Shown here piece by piece: positions 30,111 to 64,000 of a DNA stretch of 64,000 bases (the stretch's first letter is position 1; each line of letters begins with the position of its first letter). The notes beneath the pieces are model-generated. The model was given only the letters and a program-made list of their open reading frames with translations. It searched no databases and had not been told where the DNA came from. A program made the position numbers and the translations under genes. Source of the stretch: Centroscyllium fabricii (lineage: Eukaryota); assembly GCA_051313645.2 (NCBI GenBank), contig JBNRSN020000008.1:121706001-121770000 (forward strand), in the 5' to 3' direction.

Positions 30111-30390
30111 NNNNNNNNNNNNNNNNNNNNNNNNNNNNNNNNNNNNNNNNNNNNNNNNNNNNNNNNNNNNNNNNNNNNNNNNNNNNNNNNNNNNNNNNNN
30201 NNNNNNNNNNNNNNNNNNNNNNNNNNNNNNNNNNNNNNNNNNNNNNNNNNNNNNNNNNNNNNNNNNNNNNNNNNNNNNNNNNNNNNNNNNNNNNNNNNNN
30301 NNNNNNNNNNNNNNNNNNNNNNNNNNNNNNNNNNNNNNNNNNNNNNNNNNNNNNNNNNNNNNNNNNNNNNNNNNNNNNNNNNNNNNNNNN
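30111..30390. other. Assembly gap (280 N)
   Basis: Run of N. Confidence 1.
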
Positions 30391-30570: not shown

Positions 30571-33500
30571 CTGATCTACAGCCAATATCCAGCGGTCTAT
30601 TTGGAAGCTTAACTCTGGCGTTACTGACAATACACATTCTACACCGACAATACGCATTTTTCATTTCCAAAGTATTTCACTATAACAATAGCAAAATATT
30701 ATAATTAACCATTTAATGGAAACATCTTTTCAATTAACATCTGTCAAAAGTTAATCTGATCGCCAACAACGTTTAGCACTTCTGAATTAATAACGCTGCT
30801 TCTCGCATCTTTTTAACATAAATTTGTAAATATAAACAATTCATAATCCAGCACTCCCCATCAGATTGAATCTGGAGTTTAACGGGAATAATCCATTGCG
30901 ATTCCAGAGGCGGCTCACTCCTCACAGGGTTGACAAACAAACGTATTTCCAGACCGCGATCTTCTCCTGAATTTATTACAAGGGCGAGCACACTGTAAGG
31001 TGAAAATCAACAAAACATGAATTGGTATGTGCTGCACGCAATGATCTGCTCATTTCACAGTGTGGACATGATCCACAATCGCGTCCAGTGTAAGAGTAAA
31101 ATGTTTAATTACTGGCCGTTCTGTTTCAAAAGTTTCAGGGTTACAAAGGGGCAGTAGCCTGGAAAATATATATTTTTTATATTCGCTCCACTCAGCACTA
31201 GAAACCATACTATTCAATCGGGTGCTCTATAAGAGCGGCCTGATTTGTTAGTACAAGACAAAGACAATATTTCTTCCACCGACTGTCAGGCGGCTGCGGC
31301 AAGGTTAGATTTACGAGCGTTAGACAGAATCAGTTGGACTGTGTAGCGACTACGTTCTTAGCTCAAAATTACAAGGGAGGCACACAAATCAAAGTTCACA
31401 AAGGACAACTAAAACCAAACCCTATATTATGGCATTTTATCTCAAATATACTTGCTAAAATATTACATTTTCTTGTACTTAAGATTAACGAATCGCACGC
31501 TATAAGTTGTAGTACATGATGTGGTATCTCGAATCACTACACTTTCAATCGAGGCCTACACTGAAACTGTCATCCCGAAACCATCCCAATAACTCGGAAC
31601 TATGCAGTTTTACGGTTGCCGTTCTAACTCTCGCGCGGAAAACGGTGGACGTTGGGCCCTGGTTATACAGTTCCTGACTGAATGCTATTTTCTTTGGAAT
31701 ATGCTTGGGCTTGAATTATTTTGCAATACTTTAGCGCTCCTGTTCTTAAATAATCCGGTGATAAGCACCAGGCAAAGGAACACACATGCCTCGACTGTAC
31801 AACGCTACGAGACGACGCAGTAAACACTGTAAAAATATTTCTGCCATATTGTATAAATCAAATATTGTTTCGTATGAAAAACCAAGTGTGTGGGGGGTGG
31901 GGCAGCCAAATAACCGAAGAATCCTATTTTATTGCTTAATAATTCACTTACACAAGTAGTTATGGGAACATCCATTTGTATTTCCATAAAAAGAAACAGC
32001 AACATATAAATGTAATCCACATGTGTTAAATATTACTGCCATTACAGGTGGACTTTTGTAAAGTTCTTCAGGCCCGAATTGCTGCAGTGGCTTTTTGACA
32101 TCATCACCCCTCTCTGAATTGCGCCATTCCGGAGCAGTTTCTAGGATTTATAATCTGCCTATTAATCAAAACGGAAAAGACAAATGCTTTTTTCAAATAT
32201 TACATTTATTGCCCTCACAGTTTTCCTGCATTTCTAGCCAGATCGAACTGGTTCGATTTGTTTAAAGTAGAATACAGCACCGCGAAACTATCCCTGCACA
32301 GAAAGACACCGGACCAAAGGTGCAGTCTCTGCAATCTGCACCGTTCGTTTTCGAAAATTGTATATATTTGACGAAGACTCCCTTTCGGTACGGATTAATT
32401 CAATGGTCTCAGCTTGTATATTGGAGTCTACATCAGACCTCAGAGGCTTATGAAAATACCACCACCCGCCATAATGTAAAATGTAGATTGTACAAGGGAA
32501 AATGCAATAAAGGTCACAAAGAATTGCATAATGAAAATAAAAGTAAGTGTATAACACACGTCTGCTTAGCGTTTCTGTATGTTGTTCTGTCGCGACTGGT
32601 GTCGGCGTCAATTTAACCAGTCACGAAGTAACATATAGTGTTAATCCTTTCTTAAACCAGTACCTGATGACAACAGAAAACAAGTACTTTATGTAGAGTC
32701 CTAACTTTAGTGGGCAAGGGACACTAAAAGACGGGCCACGTATTTGCAAATAAAAGTTAATGGGAAACTTTGTAAAGCCGGTTTTTAATGCACAATCTGT
32801 AAAGATATCTAACTAATGCGCAGTGTTCTACGAAAACAACACATTCCAATCACTCTAGTGCCACGGGCAGTGTGTGTAAGTGCGGAGAGGGTTGCCTGTG
32901 AACCGCATATTTCAGTTTTTCGATCAAAATAATTTTCACGGCGTCGTTTCCCACAAGAAAAAAATCTCAAAATCCCAACCCGCTTGAGCAAAAATCGCAA
33001 TCTGATTTTTTCAGTAGTAATAATTACTGCAAATATTTATAATTTATTTCCATCAAGCAATTCGCCAAGAACCAAATTATTTATTTGCAGTAAACATCAA
33101 ACTACGGGGTCAAGTATACAGGTCATACGAAAGAAAGGTGTTCTAATTCAACTGATTAAGAAAAGAGATGTTAATTGTCCTACAAAATATGTTGAATTAT
33201 TGTGCTACAATTTTACATAATGAAAGCATCGCATAAAACTTAAAGGCTCTATGTAGTTGTATAGAACACGTCAACATATAATTCTGCCAAGCACTTTACA
33301 CCTGTACTGTACACGAGCCAATACACTAATAAAATCACTAAACAGGATTTTTGTATTTACAGAAACATTTTGCGTGTGTTCTCCAATACATGTCGACAGA
33401 TACATAATGCATAATTTCGGATAACAGCAAGCAGTTTTCATAACTAACAATTCTCTTAACTTAAAGCTTGAACCATTAAAAAAATGAACACATTCCGAAG

Positions 33501-33840: not shown

Positions 33841-34348
33841 ATGAGTTCCTACTTTTTAAACTCCTTCTCAGGTCGCTACCAAAATGGCCACGATTATCAG
33901 TTGCAGAGTTATGGAAATACTGCGTCTGTGGGCGAGCATTTCAGGGAGTCGACGATGCTCTCCGCCAGGTATGGCTATGATTACACCGGGATAGACCTCA
34001 GCATGACTCGCCCTAACTCAAATCTGTGTGGAGACAGTGAAAGGTCTACTAACTACCTGCAAACAGCAAGTAACACCTTTCATAGCTCATCTGGTGTGAG
34101 AACTAAGTCTCCTGATCCTGCCTTCTGCTCGGGATCTTTAATAAGCCCATCAGACAGTGCGATTAAGACGGGGGCTACTATCACAGAGCCCAGTCACTCA
34201 TACAGCGGTAGCCAGGACCCATCGCCGGTTACCGATGAGCATCAAACGGGGACGAACAGCCCCAAACCAGAAGGTGGACAACTAGACAAGGATCCAGCAC
34301 AGCAGATGCAGATATACCCTTGGATGAAAAAGCTCCACCTTAACCAAG
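33841..34348 (+). CDS. hoxd5: Homeobox protein Hox-D5, exon 1
   Basis: [21 protein letters not shown]...[12 protein letters not shown]...[11 protein letters not shown] (paralogue group 5). Donor AAG|GTACG at 34349. Confidence 0.95.
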
Positions 34349-34737
34349 GTACGCTCACAGCCGTCATTCTGCCTTTTGACATACATTTTAATCCTGATCG
34401 AATTAATTTTTAGATAAAGAAACAAAATAACTGAGTAAGCATGATCTAAGTATATAACGACTATTTGTAAAAAGTACAGCAGTTTGAATCCTATCGGAAT
34501 ATAGGGCTGTTGCTTTAAATTATTATAGCAATTATGCCAGGAGCTGTACCATGTTATGCATCTTAACTCTTTCCGTTGAAGTTTAAAATATGTTTAAAAT
34601 ATTTTAACATATGTATCTGAATAAGTAAACATTTTGTTCTAGATATAGACATTATGGCGTATTTGTCTGAAACTGTATGATTTCATACTTTCGTTTGTAT
34701 TGATGCGTGTAGTAATGCATCTTTAACTTTTTCTTAA

Positions 34738-34989
<252 letters not shown>

Positions 34990-42346: not shown

Positions 42347-42429
42347 CGTCGTCTATATATACCCTGTAGAACCGAATTTGTGTGATGATTCGGTCACAGA
42401 TTCGTTTCTAGGGGAGTATATGGTCGATG
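42347..42429 (+). ncRNA. mir10b: microRNA miR-10b precursor
   Basis: Mature TACCCTGTAGAACCGAATTTGTG at 42360-42382 pairs with the 3p arm ACAGATTCGTTTCTAGGGGAGT at 42396-42417. Canonical position upstream of Hox4. Confidence 0.98.
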
Positions 42430-53489: not shown

Positions 53490-54593
53490 GTAAGCAATCG
53501 TATGATAAAATGCAACCTTTAGCAGTAGGTTTGCATAATGCCTTCAGCAAGAGAGCATATTTTTCATGCAAAATTGTATGAAATTCTGATACAAACTAGT
53601 GTATTGTTTCCATTTCAGCAGCAGATTAGAAAAATGATTTTGTAGCAAAGAATGGTGATTTATAAAGAACATTTTGCTGTTTCACGAAAGTGCGCAATTT
53701 GAGAAAGGTTAGATCAGACAAACCAGAGCAGTCCCAGATTTGTCTTGTGGCTGTATTTTAGCTGATTCTGCGGTTTTATGTAAAAGGAAAACGAAATAAA
53801 AAGGCATAGAAACCCAGGGAACTTTTCAAACTGTCACTAGCAAACTTAGATCGTAAATCACATTAATTTGTTGTCTCTAGCTTATCGTCAGGCTGCAGTC
53901 TTCTTTGATTTATGCGCTTCAGAAATATATTGCGGGCTAAAGTTATTGCAGCAGCCTGTATAAATTATTTCTCAATTAATGTTATTGTCGTTCAAAGAAA
54001 ACAATTTGTGAATTTCTAGGAACTCAGTATATCCGTATTTTTTAAATATATTAAATATAAAATATCGAATATTATTTTAACTCATAATAATCGTGTCAGA
54101 AGATAGTCTCTATAATAGATTAAATTCAATATTCTTGTAGTTATGCACTTCACTATTAACCAGCTTGTGTGGATGCTCAGAAACAAAATCATCCTGTTTC
54201 AATCGTATTTCCTGGTGTCTAGGCGACGTTCCAGTGGAATTTAAATATTAAATGTTAACTTAGTTATTTCTGTTCCAGTTCCAGAAACGCGTTCACTTAC
54301 TTTTATTAATTGCTATCCCGAATACAACTGTATTTTGTTCCAATTTTAAAACACAAAACGCCTTATAATTCCCACGTTTAGACATAATATCTTAATGTCA
54401 TTACAGTACATAAGATATTGGTCTGATGTAAACAGAATGTAGGATCCGGAGTGTGATTGAAGTTGCTTTCTTTTAATTCAATTTTTAAAGCCAATAGAAC
54501 TATAGTGTTATTCGTTGTAATTTTATTGTTAATAATGGAGGAAGTTTCCTTTTTTCTTAATGAAAATCTGTACTCGTAAATTGTCCAAATCCA

Positions 54594-54612
54594 TGTGTGT
54601 GTGTGTGTGTGT
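54594..54612. repeat. (TG)n microsatellite
   Basis: About 9 TG units. Confidence 0.85.
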
Positions 54613-56991
54613 ATGTGGATTTGGACATTTTCTCAGAATGTCCACAGGTATAAAAGTTGTTTCGCAACGTGCATATGTGCTTTGCTCGGTAAAAACTTTT
54701 GAGTCGAACATTTTTCATTGCTCCATGCCTCGAAGCTGCTGGGCTGCCATGTTAGTCAGCTGAATCCAATTACTGTGAGTAGCATTTCATTTTGCTCGAT
54801 GGGGCCACTCACTTATAACTTCACCTAAAATTTCAATAAACCTCTCTACAGCTCACGTCATGGTAACTCGCAACATTCGCTTGATAGTGTGGCTTTAAAA
54901 CTTTTCATCTCGGAATAAAGTCAAAACTTTTAAGGCACCACGTACAGTAACCGCCTTGGACTTATAGACAGACCCAACTCCATTATGCTCTGGTAGACAG
55001 CAAAAGTAATAAACACGTAATCATTCCCAAGTTTTTCTGCCAACTCAGTTTAGCAATTTAGGAAAGTGACAAAGAAAGTTTTCAAAACTTTTCGACGTAT
55101 TCATTCTGCTAAACGGTTAGTCTGCTTATACGTGTTTAGGGTGGTAAAATGAGAGCTCCCTCACACTGCTGCGAAATTAATAAGCAAGATGTTTCAAAAC
55201 TTACCGTCCAGATCATAGCTGAGCACACTTAAGTTATCAATAACAGCTTGAAAGCAACCAAGTGTTTAAAGATTGTCGACTGTACTCGCTTTCCTTGGAA
55301 CGTAGCGACTTTACCCTGAAATTACTTTACTTACTTCCAGTGATTACAGAGAAATAAAAGCTTTTCAATTGACGTATGGCCACGTGAATACATTACACAC
55401 ATTATGGTGGGAGGCATTGGACCGAGGACCTGATGCCTTGCCGACTGTGATTTGGATCCTCTTCCAACTTCAAATTATATCGACACAAGTTGGTGAGACT
55501 AGTTTGTAAAGTGCTGCGCCTTAGTGGGATTAAAGAAGGACAGAAAAGCCATGGTGAAGTTATGTGCTGGGCTGTATTGTGAGGTAGTGGAGGCGCTTCC
55601 GTTGGTTGTTCATTAAGTGGTGAGTTATTGCTGTACAAGCCAAAGGTCATTTCAAAGGCTTATGACTCTACATATTGTCAGCTAATGACCGCGATTTCTT
55701 TGTGCATTTGATCTGCCACTGTTGCTGTTTTCCTTAAACGTGTTTCCAAATTTTAAGCATGTGTTTTGAATTGATATAAAATTCACTAAAATACAGTTTA
55801 TGCACGACTTCAGCTTGTGTTCGCCTCTTCCACATTGATTTGGAGTTCGGAGCCTGTTTCGAGGCTCCAGCGATGCTGTATTGTTGCATTTTAGTTACTT
55901 TTTGTATAACCAAGCTGCTTATTGCGCGTATTATGATCATGCCTGATCGATATAAAATAATACATGCTGTTTGGTATCCCAATGACAAAGCATAACCAAC
56001 CGCCTGTCAATAGAATGCATTATTCATGAGTTTTATACATGGCGCCAGGCTCTTTCTTGCGAACCTCCATATTTGTATTGTTATGTTGGCTTGTTTTCAA
56101 AATGTTCGACAACAGTGGTAGGTTTTCCTTAAACGCATATAGTTAAACAGCAACGAGAAAAGAAATACTTATTTATTTTTGTAAAGAAGAATGTTGATAG
56201 TGTCAGTTTACAGATAGTGGTTTGGCGCAGGTTCGAGCAGACAAAAAGGCTGCATGATATAAAATTGTGGTTCTTATTTAATGCTCTGTTCAGACCCAGC
56301 TTCCATTAGAAGGCCACCACAGAACCATGTATTTTCATACCAGGTGCAGTAGGCCCCAAAATATCAAGCTCATTGGGTAATAAGTCCACCCTCGAGGCAC
56401 ATTTCTGGCACTTTAAATGGGAGTTTCATATGAAATGCTCGGTGCTATTAATAGATTTATGTTACCGTAATAACAATTTGAATTATGACAATAGCTTGAA
56501 ATAAATGACTTGTTATTGTGTATTCAAATTATCGGGAGGCATCTTTGTCAAATACGTCCCAAAAAAACCAAATTACGTATTCTAATCATTACCAAAATTA
56601 AAGCTATTTGACCCGTTCTTTCGTTGTTTTTTGAATTCACTGACAATGCGGCTCGCGTTCATTAATCACACAACATTGCTATTCAGTAACATCGTGTTTC
56701 TAATTTCTGGAGGAAATAAAGTGATGTCTAGTATTTTGTAAATAAAAGTAATGTCAAATGCCATAGTTATTGGATTAAAGCCCACAAGGAAACATAGTTT
56801 TTTTCCACACATTTTATGTAAATAATAAAGCCAATACATTGTGTAAGAACAAAAGTGAATCTGCACGGCCTTTTTCAAGTTCTTTTCCTTTCTTTGTTTG
56901 ATAGCAGCCAGGAAGATTACCTAAATATATAGGATATAGAGAAATAGTATTAGTAGCTTTGAAAGTATTTAATTACATTTTCTTCTTTCAG

Positions 56992-60378: not shown

Positions 60379-60401
60379 CCCCCCCCCCCCCCCCCCCCCC
60401 C
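60379..60401. repeat. Poly-C tract (23 nt)
   Basis: Homopolymer. Confidence 0.95.
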
Positions 60402-62036: not shown

Positions 62037-62520
62037 ATGCTATTCGATAAGGGTGTCAAGACCCTGTCATTTCGAAATAGCGAGATGCAAAAAACGACTT
62101 ACTATGATAACTCCGGAATATTCGGCGGTTACTCCTACCAAAAGACCAACGCATACAGCTACAGCTCTAGTCACCAGGCCTACCCGCCATCGTCTGTTGA
62201 AAATGATTATCAGAGCTCGACGTGCCCCATTCAGACATCTAGTGTCAGAGCCCCAAACCATAAGCCCGCAGATATAAATGGCAGCTGTATGAGAACAAGT
62301 GGCAGTCAGGGCAATGCCCAGCCCCCAAGCATCAATGAGCCACAGCAGCCACCTCCTTTGCCACCCTCACCCAATGCAAGCAACACCTCAACACAGAAAA
62401 GAACCAAGTCTATTCCAAATTCTTCTGCCAGCCCAGCTGCTACTCTCACCAAGCAGATCTTCCCATGGATGAAAGAGTCGCGTCAAAATGCCAAGCAGAA
62501 AAACAACTGCACAGTTGCAG
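62037..62520 (+). CDS. hoxd3: Homeobox protein Hox-D3, first coding exon (homeobox exon lies beyond the window)
   Basis: [34 protein letters not shown]...INGSCMR...[18 protein letters not shown] matches HOXD3 (MLF...MQK). Probable acceptor CTCTAG ends at 61983; donor CAG|GTATC at 62521. Confidence 0.95.
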
Positions 62521-62829
62521 GTATCCGTCAGCGGTTCACTTTTTTCAACTTTAAGCCGGCTAGTCTCTTAACAATTAGAAATAAAGTTTATCAAAAGAAT
62601 GTCACACGTAGATGGGAGTCATTTCCCTCTATTTTACTTCTAATGACTGGGAGAGTAAAGGGATCGTTACATATTTTCTGGGCATTGCATACAAAATTTT
62701 AGGGGTAGATTGTAAGCCATTGTATCCTTAGTGATCACGACAATAATGTGGACATATTAAAACATTCATGTTGAGTAACTGACATATTCTGGGAGGATTG
62801 ATCAGGAGAAAGGGGACTGGCAGAAATTA

Positions 62830-63002
62830 CTGTCTATTGCTAAGTCCACAGTAATAAGATGCAATTATTTGGGCCATTGCCAAGAATTGCATATATTAGG
62901 ATTTTGATTCTCAAACATCACATGGTGAAATCCTAATATATGCAATTCTTGGAGATGGCCCAAATAATTGCATCTTATTACTGTGGACTTAGCAATAGAC
63001 AG
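62830..63002. repeat. Long near-perfect inverted repeat (75-bp arms, 23-nt loop)
   Basis: 62830-62904 is the reverse complement of 62928-63002 at 73 of 75 positions. Confidence 0.97.
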
Positions 63003-63575
63003 ACCAGAACCTAATACAGTATATTCATATCAAGAATTTGCTTGTATCGCTTTTACATATAAATTAATTTGGTTGTATTTGATCTTATCTTATCCTTTCG
63101 CTCATTCACATTGCCTGTAAATGCAAAAGTTTGAGCACATATGACATAAGTATGGTATATGATAGAAATACTTTTAATGGGAACCATCCTTCATATTCTA
63201 ATTGTGTTCTCGTGGGTATTACCAATAACTGCACATTAAATGAGAATAGCTAAATACTGTTCAACTTTTACAATAAAATAAAATACATATCAAGATGGCT
63301 ACACATTTCATCCTATTATTACATGGTAACAGAATATTAATCAACCTTTTACTTCCAAACTATGCACAAAAAAGAATTAAACTTTTCTACTCCAATGTAA
63401 TATTTTCTTTGGGGTGGATATGCTAATCAACCCAGATTTAAGGTAGTTACCTTCACAGATCAGACTAAATGAAAGCTGGGAAACAATAATAAGCACGTCT
63501 TATGTTACAAAATTAAAGGTAAATACATTTAAGTAAATATTTTCATTAAAATTAATCAATGTAAAATTTATGTTT

Positions 63576-64000
63576 GTTTCCACATGTACACTGACAACAC
63601 CCAGCTCTACCTCACCACCACTTCTCTCGACCCCTCCATTGCCTGTAAACTGTCAGACTGCTTGTCTGATATCCAGTACTGGATGGGCAGAAATTTCCTG
63701 CAACTAAATATTGGGAAGACTGAAGCCATTGTCTTCAGTCCCCACCACAAACTCCGTTCCCTAACTGCCAACTCCATCCCTCACCCTAACATCTGTCTGA
63801 GGCTGAACTACACTGTTCGCAACCTTGGTGTCATTTTTGGCCCTAAAATGAGCTTCCAACCACTGATCTGCAGCTATCTAAGACCACCTATTTCTACTCA
63901 GTAACATTGTCCATCTCTGCACCTGAAACCCACACCCATACCTTTGTTACCTCTAGACTTGACTATTCCAACCCACTCCTGGATGGCCTCCCATGTTCTA
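63576..64000 (+). mobile_element. Degenerate L2/CR1-group LINE reverse transcriptase fragment, 5'-truncated, runs off the window
   Basis: HMYTDNTQLYL (decayed YADDTQLY), CLSDIQYWMGRNFLQLNIGKTE, VRNLGVIF and, after a frameshift, FVTSRLDYSNPLLDGLP. Confidence 0.92.

Follow-up and report, generated by a model that had tools for sequence, protein, structure and literature searches.

A near-perfect hairpin of 173 nt lies in what should be the HoxD3 intron of the shark Centroscyllium fabricii. Most probably (we put the probability at about 0.74) it is an inverted duplication, present as a single copy, that replication template switching produced tens of millions of years ago and that is now decaying neutrally. 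The hairpin lies in a stretch of 64,000 nucleotides that was analysed as a whole and is referred to below as the window.

The two arms of the inverted repeat are 75 nt each, are 97% complementary and are separated by a 23-nt spacer; their positions and those of the surrounding features are collected in Table 1. Watson-Crick pairs form at 73 of the 75 arm positions, and the two exceptions are adjacent to each other: a wobble, T62878:G62954, and a mismatch, G62879.A62953. When positions 62800-63030 were folded as RNA, the predicted energy was -133.3 kcal/mol (z -19.2), a stability equalled by none of 200 shuffled sequences; the opposite strand of the hairpin region, folded as RNA, gave a z of -24.4. 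The near-perfect hairpin of the original prediction is thus confirmed in its arm length, pairing and loop. With its 75-bp arms, 97% identity and GC content of 35%, it also falls under the definition of a long inverted repeat (LIR), i.e., arms >30 bp, identity >85% and GC >20%, given in PMC5414712.

Table 1. Features of the HoxD3 region of the window (positions are those of the window)
Feature	Position	Strand	Observation
HoxD3 exon 1, coding, ends in hexapeptide FPWM region	62085..62520	+	145-aa open frame 62085-62519
Intron between donor and hairpin, used as local divergence yardstick	62521..62829	+	X5, X10 and X12 each with 19 substitutions and 2 insertions over 62522-62829 relative to the window
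Left arm of inverted duplication	62830..62904		contiguous with the exon on one contig in 4/4 runs
Nested short imperfect inverted repeat, left arm	62859..62892 (mirror 62940-62973, right arm)		11-nt arms, 91%
Adjacent bases with broken pairing in C. fabricii only	62878..62879	+	X5 and X10 letters pair with 62953-62954; X12 unaligned there
Spacer (loop), 23 nt	62905..62927		no differing letters in X3, X5, X10, X12
Right arm of inverted duplication	62928..63002		coverage to 63002 (X3), 62986 (X5), 62991 (X10, X12)

No comparable inverted repeat is present elsewhere in the window, where the next-longest perfect arms with a spacer of up to 100 nt measure 12 bp. Small perfect inverted repeats with 12-bp arms were noted at 54582-54627 and 33024-33093. 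A self-search of the 64 kb returned no second copy of the hairpin, no tandem repeat was found at the hairpin, and a plasmid search with it gave no match. An 8-nt motif occurs four times within the hairpin. Each arm also houses a short imperfect inverted repeat of its own. This nested repeat is weak: a single arm folds with a z of -2.2 to -2.6 as DNA and of only -0.9 to -1.7 as RNA.

The host gene was identified from the open frame of exon 1. Among the best 120 of 294 protein matches, this frame is most similar to HoxD3 of Heterodontus (96%), followed by Cetorhinus (95%) and Callorhinchus (86%), while Hox-A3 and Hox-B3 proteins of cartilaginous fishes reach at most 55% among the same 120. The assignment to HoxD3 made in the original prediction is therefore borne out. 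A GT donor is present at 62521-62522, so that, on the sense strand, 309 nt of intron precede the hairpin. Judging from this position, with exon 2 lying beyond the window, the hairpin should be intronic and transcribed as part of the HoxD3 pre-mRNA.

The + strand of the window contains five homeobox exons and four hexapeptide exons, and its Hox genes presumably belong to groups 10, 9, 8, 5, 4 and 3. The HoxD3 intron also contains an open frame of 106 aa at 63584-63904 (+), continuing towards 64000, which gave no family in Pfam and which we take to resemble the terminal part of a reverse-transcriptase gene from a LINE of the L2/CR1 type, i.e., a retroelement piece in a Hox intron. A run of 23 C residues lies upstream of HoxD3 exon 1 (60379-60401), and an assembly gap of 280 N is located at 30111-30390. 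Rfam detected a mir-10 precursor at 42353-42424 (+), immediately upstream of the group-4 gene (72.6 bits, cut-off 47.5). The group-5 gene at 34315-34900 (+), between the group-8 and group-4 genes, is at the place expected for HoxD5 of cartilaginous fishes, which is retained in these fishes and missing from mammals and teleosts (PMC1845163).

For comparison with other species, contigs matching at 80% likeness were taken from four of 19 listed public runs: X3 (species A, C. fabricii itself), X5 (species B), X10 (species C) and X12 (species D). Between 2.0 and 2.7 billion letters were read per run, which is whole-genome-sized. The runs listed for 62400-63500 included no RNA run, which has no bearing on expression. 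The hairpin is present at the same place in all four runs, that is, in four species from three studies. In each run, one contig joins the exon to the left arm, and a second one covers the inner left arm, the loop and the right arm (in X12, starting from 62880). The contigs of X3 show no differing letters over 62400-63002, and contig cover in the four runs stops at or before 63002.

Fold-back chimaeras arise in sequencing, and an assembly or library artefact would have some room here, as X3 may share its source project with the window and no contig crosses the right junction at 63002/63003. The probability of such an origin is nevertheless close to negligible. In species B, C and D, three other organisms from two other studies, the hairpin is seen in contigs running from the left arm through the loop to the right arm, and each species has differences of its own; runs X1-X4 contain 0.97 of 104 words sampled across 62400-63500. 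Since contigs with the hairpin at the same place were obtained from C. fabricii and from three other species, the hairpin is not the assembly error that the original prediction had allowed for. A separate 38-nt contig of X5 (62949-62986) has a depth of 7, compared with 17-19 for its neighbours; the locus may have two alleles, the inner part may be inverted, or the contig may come from a fold-back that arose in the library.

The same contigs were used to assess copy number. The search returned 5, 5, 6 and 4 contig records for X3, X5, X10 and X12, of which 3, 3, 3 and 2, respectively, lie on the hairpin, and in every run these are overlapping pieces of a single locus. The remaining records are pieces of 36-63 nt with 3-7 differences on the hexapeptide stretch of the exon, presumably from Hox3 paralogues. 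Since such short and diverged exon pieces were caught, the contig search was sensitive. No contig from another locus matched the hairpin in any of the four runs in this record-filtered search, whose reach is relatives of at least 80% likeness. As far as tested in the contigs of the four runs, the hairpin is single-copy.

Nor is there a target-site duplication at the exact ends of the hairpin (k = 2-10, at most 3 matches). When the ends were allowed to shift, the best direct match was 7/9, with a 2-nt shift. A match as good was obtained at about 25% of 600 random positions, and by this control a decayed 9-bp target duplication was ruled out. As no contig from another locus and no target-site duplication was found, a high-copy MITE is unlikely, and the statement of the original prediction that this is not a simple MITE holds.

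One could still picture a copy of a rare or orphan DNA transposon of the foldback or MITE type that has lost its target-site duplication through decay. MITE and foldback elements are short, A/T-rich and made up mostly of inverted repeat. The shark hairpin resembles them in being 173 nt long, 35% GC and almost fully palindromic, with terminal inverted repeats of 75 bp; the 7/9 match near its ends could be read as a relic, and the nested repeat in each arm could correspond to a subterminal repeat. Against this, neither the target-site duplication nor, in the four runs, the dispersed copies of such elements were found, and the 7/9 match is no better than that at a quarter of random positions. Given the 95-97% likeness of the arms, sister copies from the same burst would be expected well above 80% likeness, and no contig of this kind was recovered. 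We consider a transposon origin quite unlikely.

We next turn to the changes that the arms have undergone. The intron flank of B, C and D differs from that of the window by 6.2% in each case. Within the hairpin, species B differs at 62878, 62879 and 62956, and species C differs at these positions and at 62840, 62933 and 62957; D is the same as C where aligned. At 62878-62879, B and C have letters complementary to the right arm, so the mismatch there is peculiar to the window. Conversely, the window has intact pairs at 62956, 62957, 62933 and 62840, where the changes in the other species disrupt the pairing or make it weaker. The partner of 62840 is 62992, which lies outside contig cover in C, where a fork in the contigs implies that it is unchanged. 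The absence of a collapsed shared-arm contig from X5 points, by similar reasoning, to one or more further arm differences in 62979-62987.

All six listed arm differences are one-sided, and none is compensated. They leave a G:U pair on the sense strand in three cases, on the antisense strand in two and on neither strand in one. For each pair under contig cover, one species or more has the Watson-Crick form, and by parsimony the common ancestor would have had perfect arms. Fast arm-to-arm conversion was considered and ruled out: about five two-sided changes would be expected under it, and none was seen (P 0.005).

The rate at which the hairpin changes was compared with that of its left flank, a single 308-nt yardstick. 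For species B, the counts are 3/157 in the hairpin vs 19/308 in the flank (P 0.06); for species C, 6/162 vs 19/308 (P 0.29); over the whole tree, 6/157 vs 21/308 (P 0.22); and between B and C, 3/157 vs 4/308 (P 0.69). Differences common to B, C and D number 3/157 in the hairpin vs 17/308 in the flank (P 0.09, or P 0.027 with the adjacent pair counted as one event); by this count the hairpin is somewhat less diverged, which speaks against neutral decay. Since the window was chosen for its near-perfect hairpin, its own branch is biased, and the other branches were therefore tested separately. These branches carry four listed changes (five if the difference implied by X5 is included) against 5.9 expected (P 0.30-0.47), in a test that assumes a clock and a direction of change and uses no outgroup. 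C and D are identical at all shared listed sites, so the comparison rests on about three independent sequences and its power is low. The fold thus seems to decay as ordinary intron DNA, rather than being maintained as a working RNA.

The hairpin could also be regulatory DNA of the HoxD cluster under mild constraint: the duplication would have doubled the sites to which proteins bind, and the sequence, but not its pairing, would matter. One-sided changes would be tolerable in such an element, the 8-nt motif is repeated in it, and only 3 of the 20 differences common to the other three species fall in 62783-62986. An equally quiet 204-nt stretch, however, is met in 6.7% of random placements, and in the comparison of X5 with X10 the hairpin is as diverged as the flank. 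A regulatory element of this kind is, in our opinion, very unlikely.

The changes are not spread evenly over the stem. The 73 nt nearest to the loop (62880-62952) contain a single change in the four species, a wobble on the 3′ arm (G:C to G:U), against 5.0 expected (P 0.041; P 0.24 for the unselected branches), and the 25 nt of the 5′ side contain none. Four of the six changes are located 26-30 bp from the loop (P 0.003-0.11, depending on the counting method), and uniform decay does not predict such clustering. They lie within five neighbouring pairs at 62875-62879 / 62953-62957, occur on three branches and fall inside the loop of the nested repeat. Chance may account for the cluster, as may a mutation hotspot or selection favouring an internal loop.

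The fold-back might have given rise to a lineage-restricted intronic miRNA or proto-miRNA, or else to a selected ADAR target, with the 65-70 nt near the loop acting as a precursor and the mismatches 26-30 bp from the loop guiding the cut. We regard this as unlikely. With the mGHG register assumed here, a 65-nt precursor would extend over roughly 62885-62949. A mismatch 26-30 bp from the loop is found in all four species, having arisen through different changes, and on the 3′ strand of the window it forms a G-A-G with an unpaired A, like the mGHG motif named in PMC7174388. The hairpin is intronic and on the sense strand, as are 81 of the 99 intragenic miRNA loci attributed to template switching in PMC10710096, and its 23-nt loop exceeds the minimum of 10 nt used there for miRNA hairpins.

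Other properties of the hairpin speak against a miRNA. The stem is 75 bp long and has no single-stranded junction near 35 bp, the approximate optimum of Microprocessor (PMC7174388), so with a stem of twice that length it is expected to be a poor Microprocessor substrate. According to PMC12553114, long miRNA hairpins are missing from vertebrates, and the Dicer of jawed vertebrates bears a loop that restrains RNAi (10.64898/2026.02.19.706781). At the loop start, UGA is found instead of the apical UGU, and A/U makes up 77% of the 22 nt below the loop. The G-A-G arrangement is unique to the window and is not seen in the other species. Taken together, the helper motifs give a mixed picture, with an mGHG-like triplet in the window and with the positions of the basal UG and CNNC falling within the paired stem. 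No change is compensated, and there is no bias towards wobbles on the sense strand (three sense wobbles and three sense mismatches), albeit in few sequences and with low power.

Rfam assigned no family to 62830-63002 at gathering score, although the same scan recovered the mir-10 precursor of the window. Seventeen weaker matches, all below their cut-offs (the best being MIR2630, with 72 bits vs a cut-off of 144), were rejected as fitting any long stem. The 8-nt arm motif, which represents part of the arms, was not found in either direction in the liver miRNA supplement of the bamboo shark (PMC3789328), a species that may lack the hairpin. The suggestion in the original prediction that the hairpin is a source of miRNA or endo-siRNA has gained no support. 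In its most specific form, a HoxD3-intron miRNA would be in the course of being born: selection would hold the loop-near 73 nt, lineages would separately open the stem 26-30 bp below the loop, at about the site of the Microprocessor lower-stem mismatch, and the over-long stem would give rise to a small RNA co-expressed with HoxD3. We would give this scenario only a slim chance.

The age of the duplication can be estimated from the divergence of the flank. Whale shark and zebra shark differ by a dS of 0.061-0.111 after ~50 million years (PMC13100897); at this pace, an intron divergence of 6.2% corresponds to roughly 30-50 million years, or to more if Hox introns change more slowly. Perfect ancestral arms would date the duplication to no more than ~2% divergence per lineage ahead of the species split. 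The mutation rate of the epaulette shark is 7e-10 per base per generation (PMC10587355). With mutation this slow in sharks, a hairpin can be near-perfect without being recent or under selection; and since species that share the hairpin differ by 6% in the intron, it is not very young. The original prediction of a young fold-back duplication therefore stands as to the fold-back duplication, which is the best origin, while its youth is relative only, as three other species carry it across this 6% divergence.

Taken as a template-switch duplication, the hairpin would have arisen as follows. During replication or repair, the growing strand would have switched template, either by folding back over the 23-nt spacer or by jumping to the sister strand, copied ~75 nt backwards and then returned, so that two perfect arms were made in one step. 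This would have taken place some tens of millions of years ago, not long before the four species diverged. Afterwards, point changes would have accumulated in either arm of each lineage at about the rate of the neighbouring intron, with no repair from the partner arm. A long stem in a pre-mRNA should form and could undergo ADAR editing; in the HoxD3 pre-mRNA, ADAR may edit it in passing, and the stem would leave with the intron. The observed features, i.e., an adjacent reverse-complement copy at a single locus without transposon marks, the arms of which were by parsimony perfect at origin, are those expected of a template switch. Such events are common: in human genic regions, 53,666 have been inferred to postdate the primate ancestor, 6,054 of which gave miRNA-sized hairpins, and 0.9% of the latter are annotated miRNAs (PMC10710096).

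On this reading, nothing sets the hairpin apart from what a known mutation process ordinarily yields. It may be of modest use as a common marker for a shark clade and as an example of the decay of a perfect palindrome under a slow clock. If small RNAs from it were found, a vertebrate Hox cluster would gain a new miRNA that parallels miR-615, and a stem of twice the usual length would be shown to be processed. Our literature search, mostly outside subscription papers, retrieved no report of a hairpin in a shark HoxD3 intron.

miR-615, located in the Hoxc5 intron of eutherians (PMC4597612), is likewise a sense-strand hairpin in a Hox intron with a restricted distribution. Rfam revealed no sequence relation between the two. 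miR-615 is highly conserved across eutherians and has a known mature product, whereas the shark hairpin, with its 75-bp stem, loses pairs in each lineage without compensation.

Two LIRs are reported between HoxD8 and HoxD4 of a caecilian, with arms of 125 and 231 bp that are almost 100% alike and spacers of 8 and 16 bp; in 2015, the authors of that study knew of no LIR >100 bp in Hox clusters from other jawed vertebrates (PMC4470032). Compared with these, the shark hairpin has shorter arms and a 23-nt spacer, is intronic rather than intergenic and has been traced in four species. Shorter inverted repeats are numerous in the posterior HoxD of a caecilian and of the coelacanth, with 30 and 21 counted, respectively (PMC3091776).

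The template-switch hairpins described by Monttinen, Frilander and Loytynoja in 2023 and 2022 (PMC10710096; PMC8794818) have parent states from which the event can be reconstructed, whereas the shark event is inferred. The shark arm is also longer, at 75 nt, than their stem-making example of 28 nt, while a loop-inverting switch of 83 nt is cited as well. The shark hairpin is like them in other respects: it occupies a single locus, has a short spacer, would have been perfect at birth and acquired point changes later, and it lies in an intron in the sense orientation.
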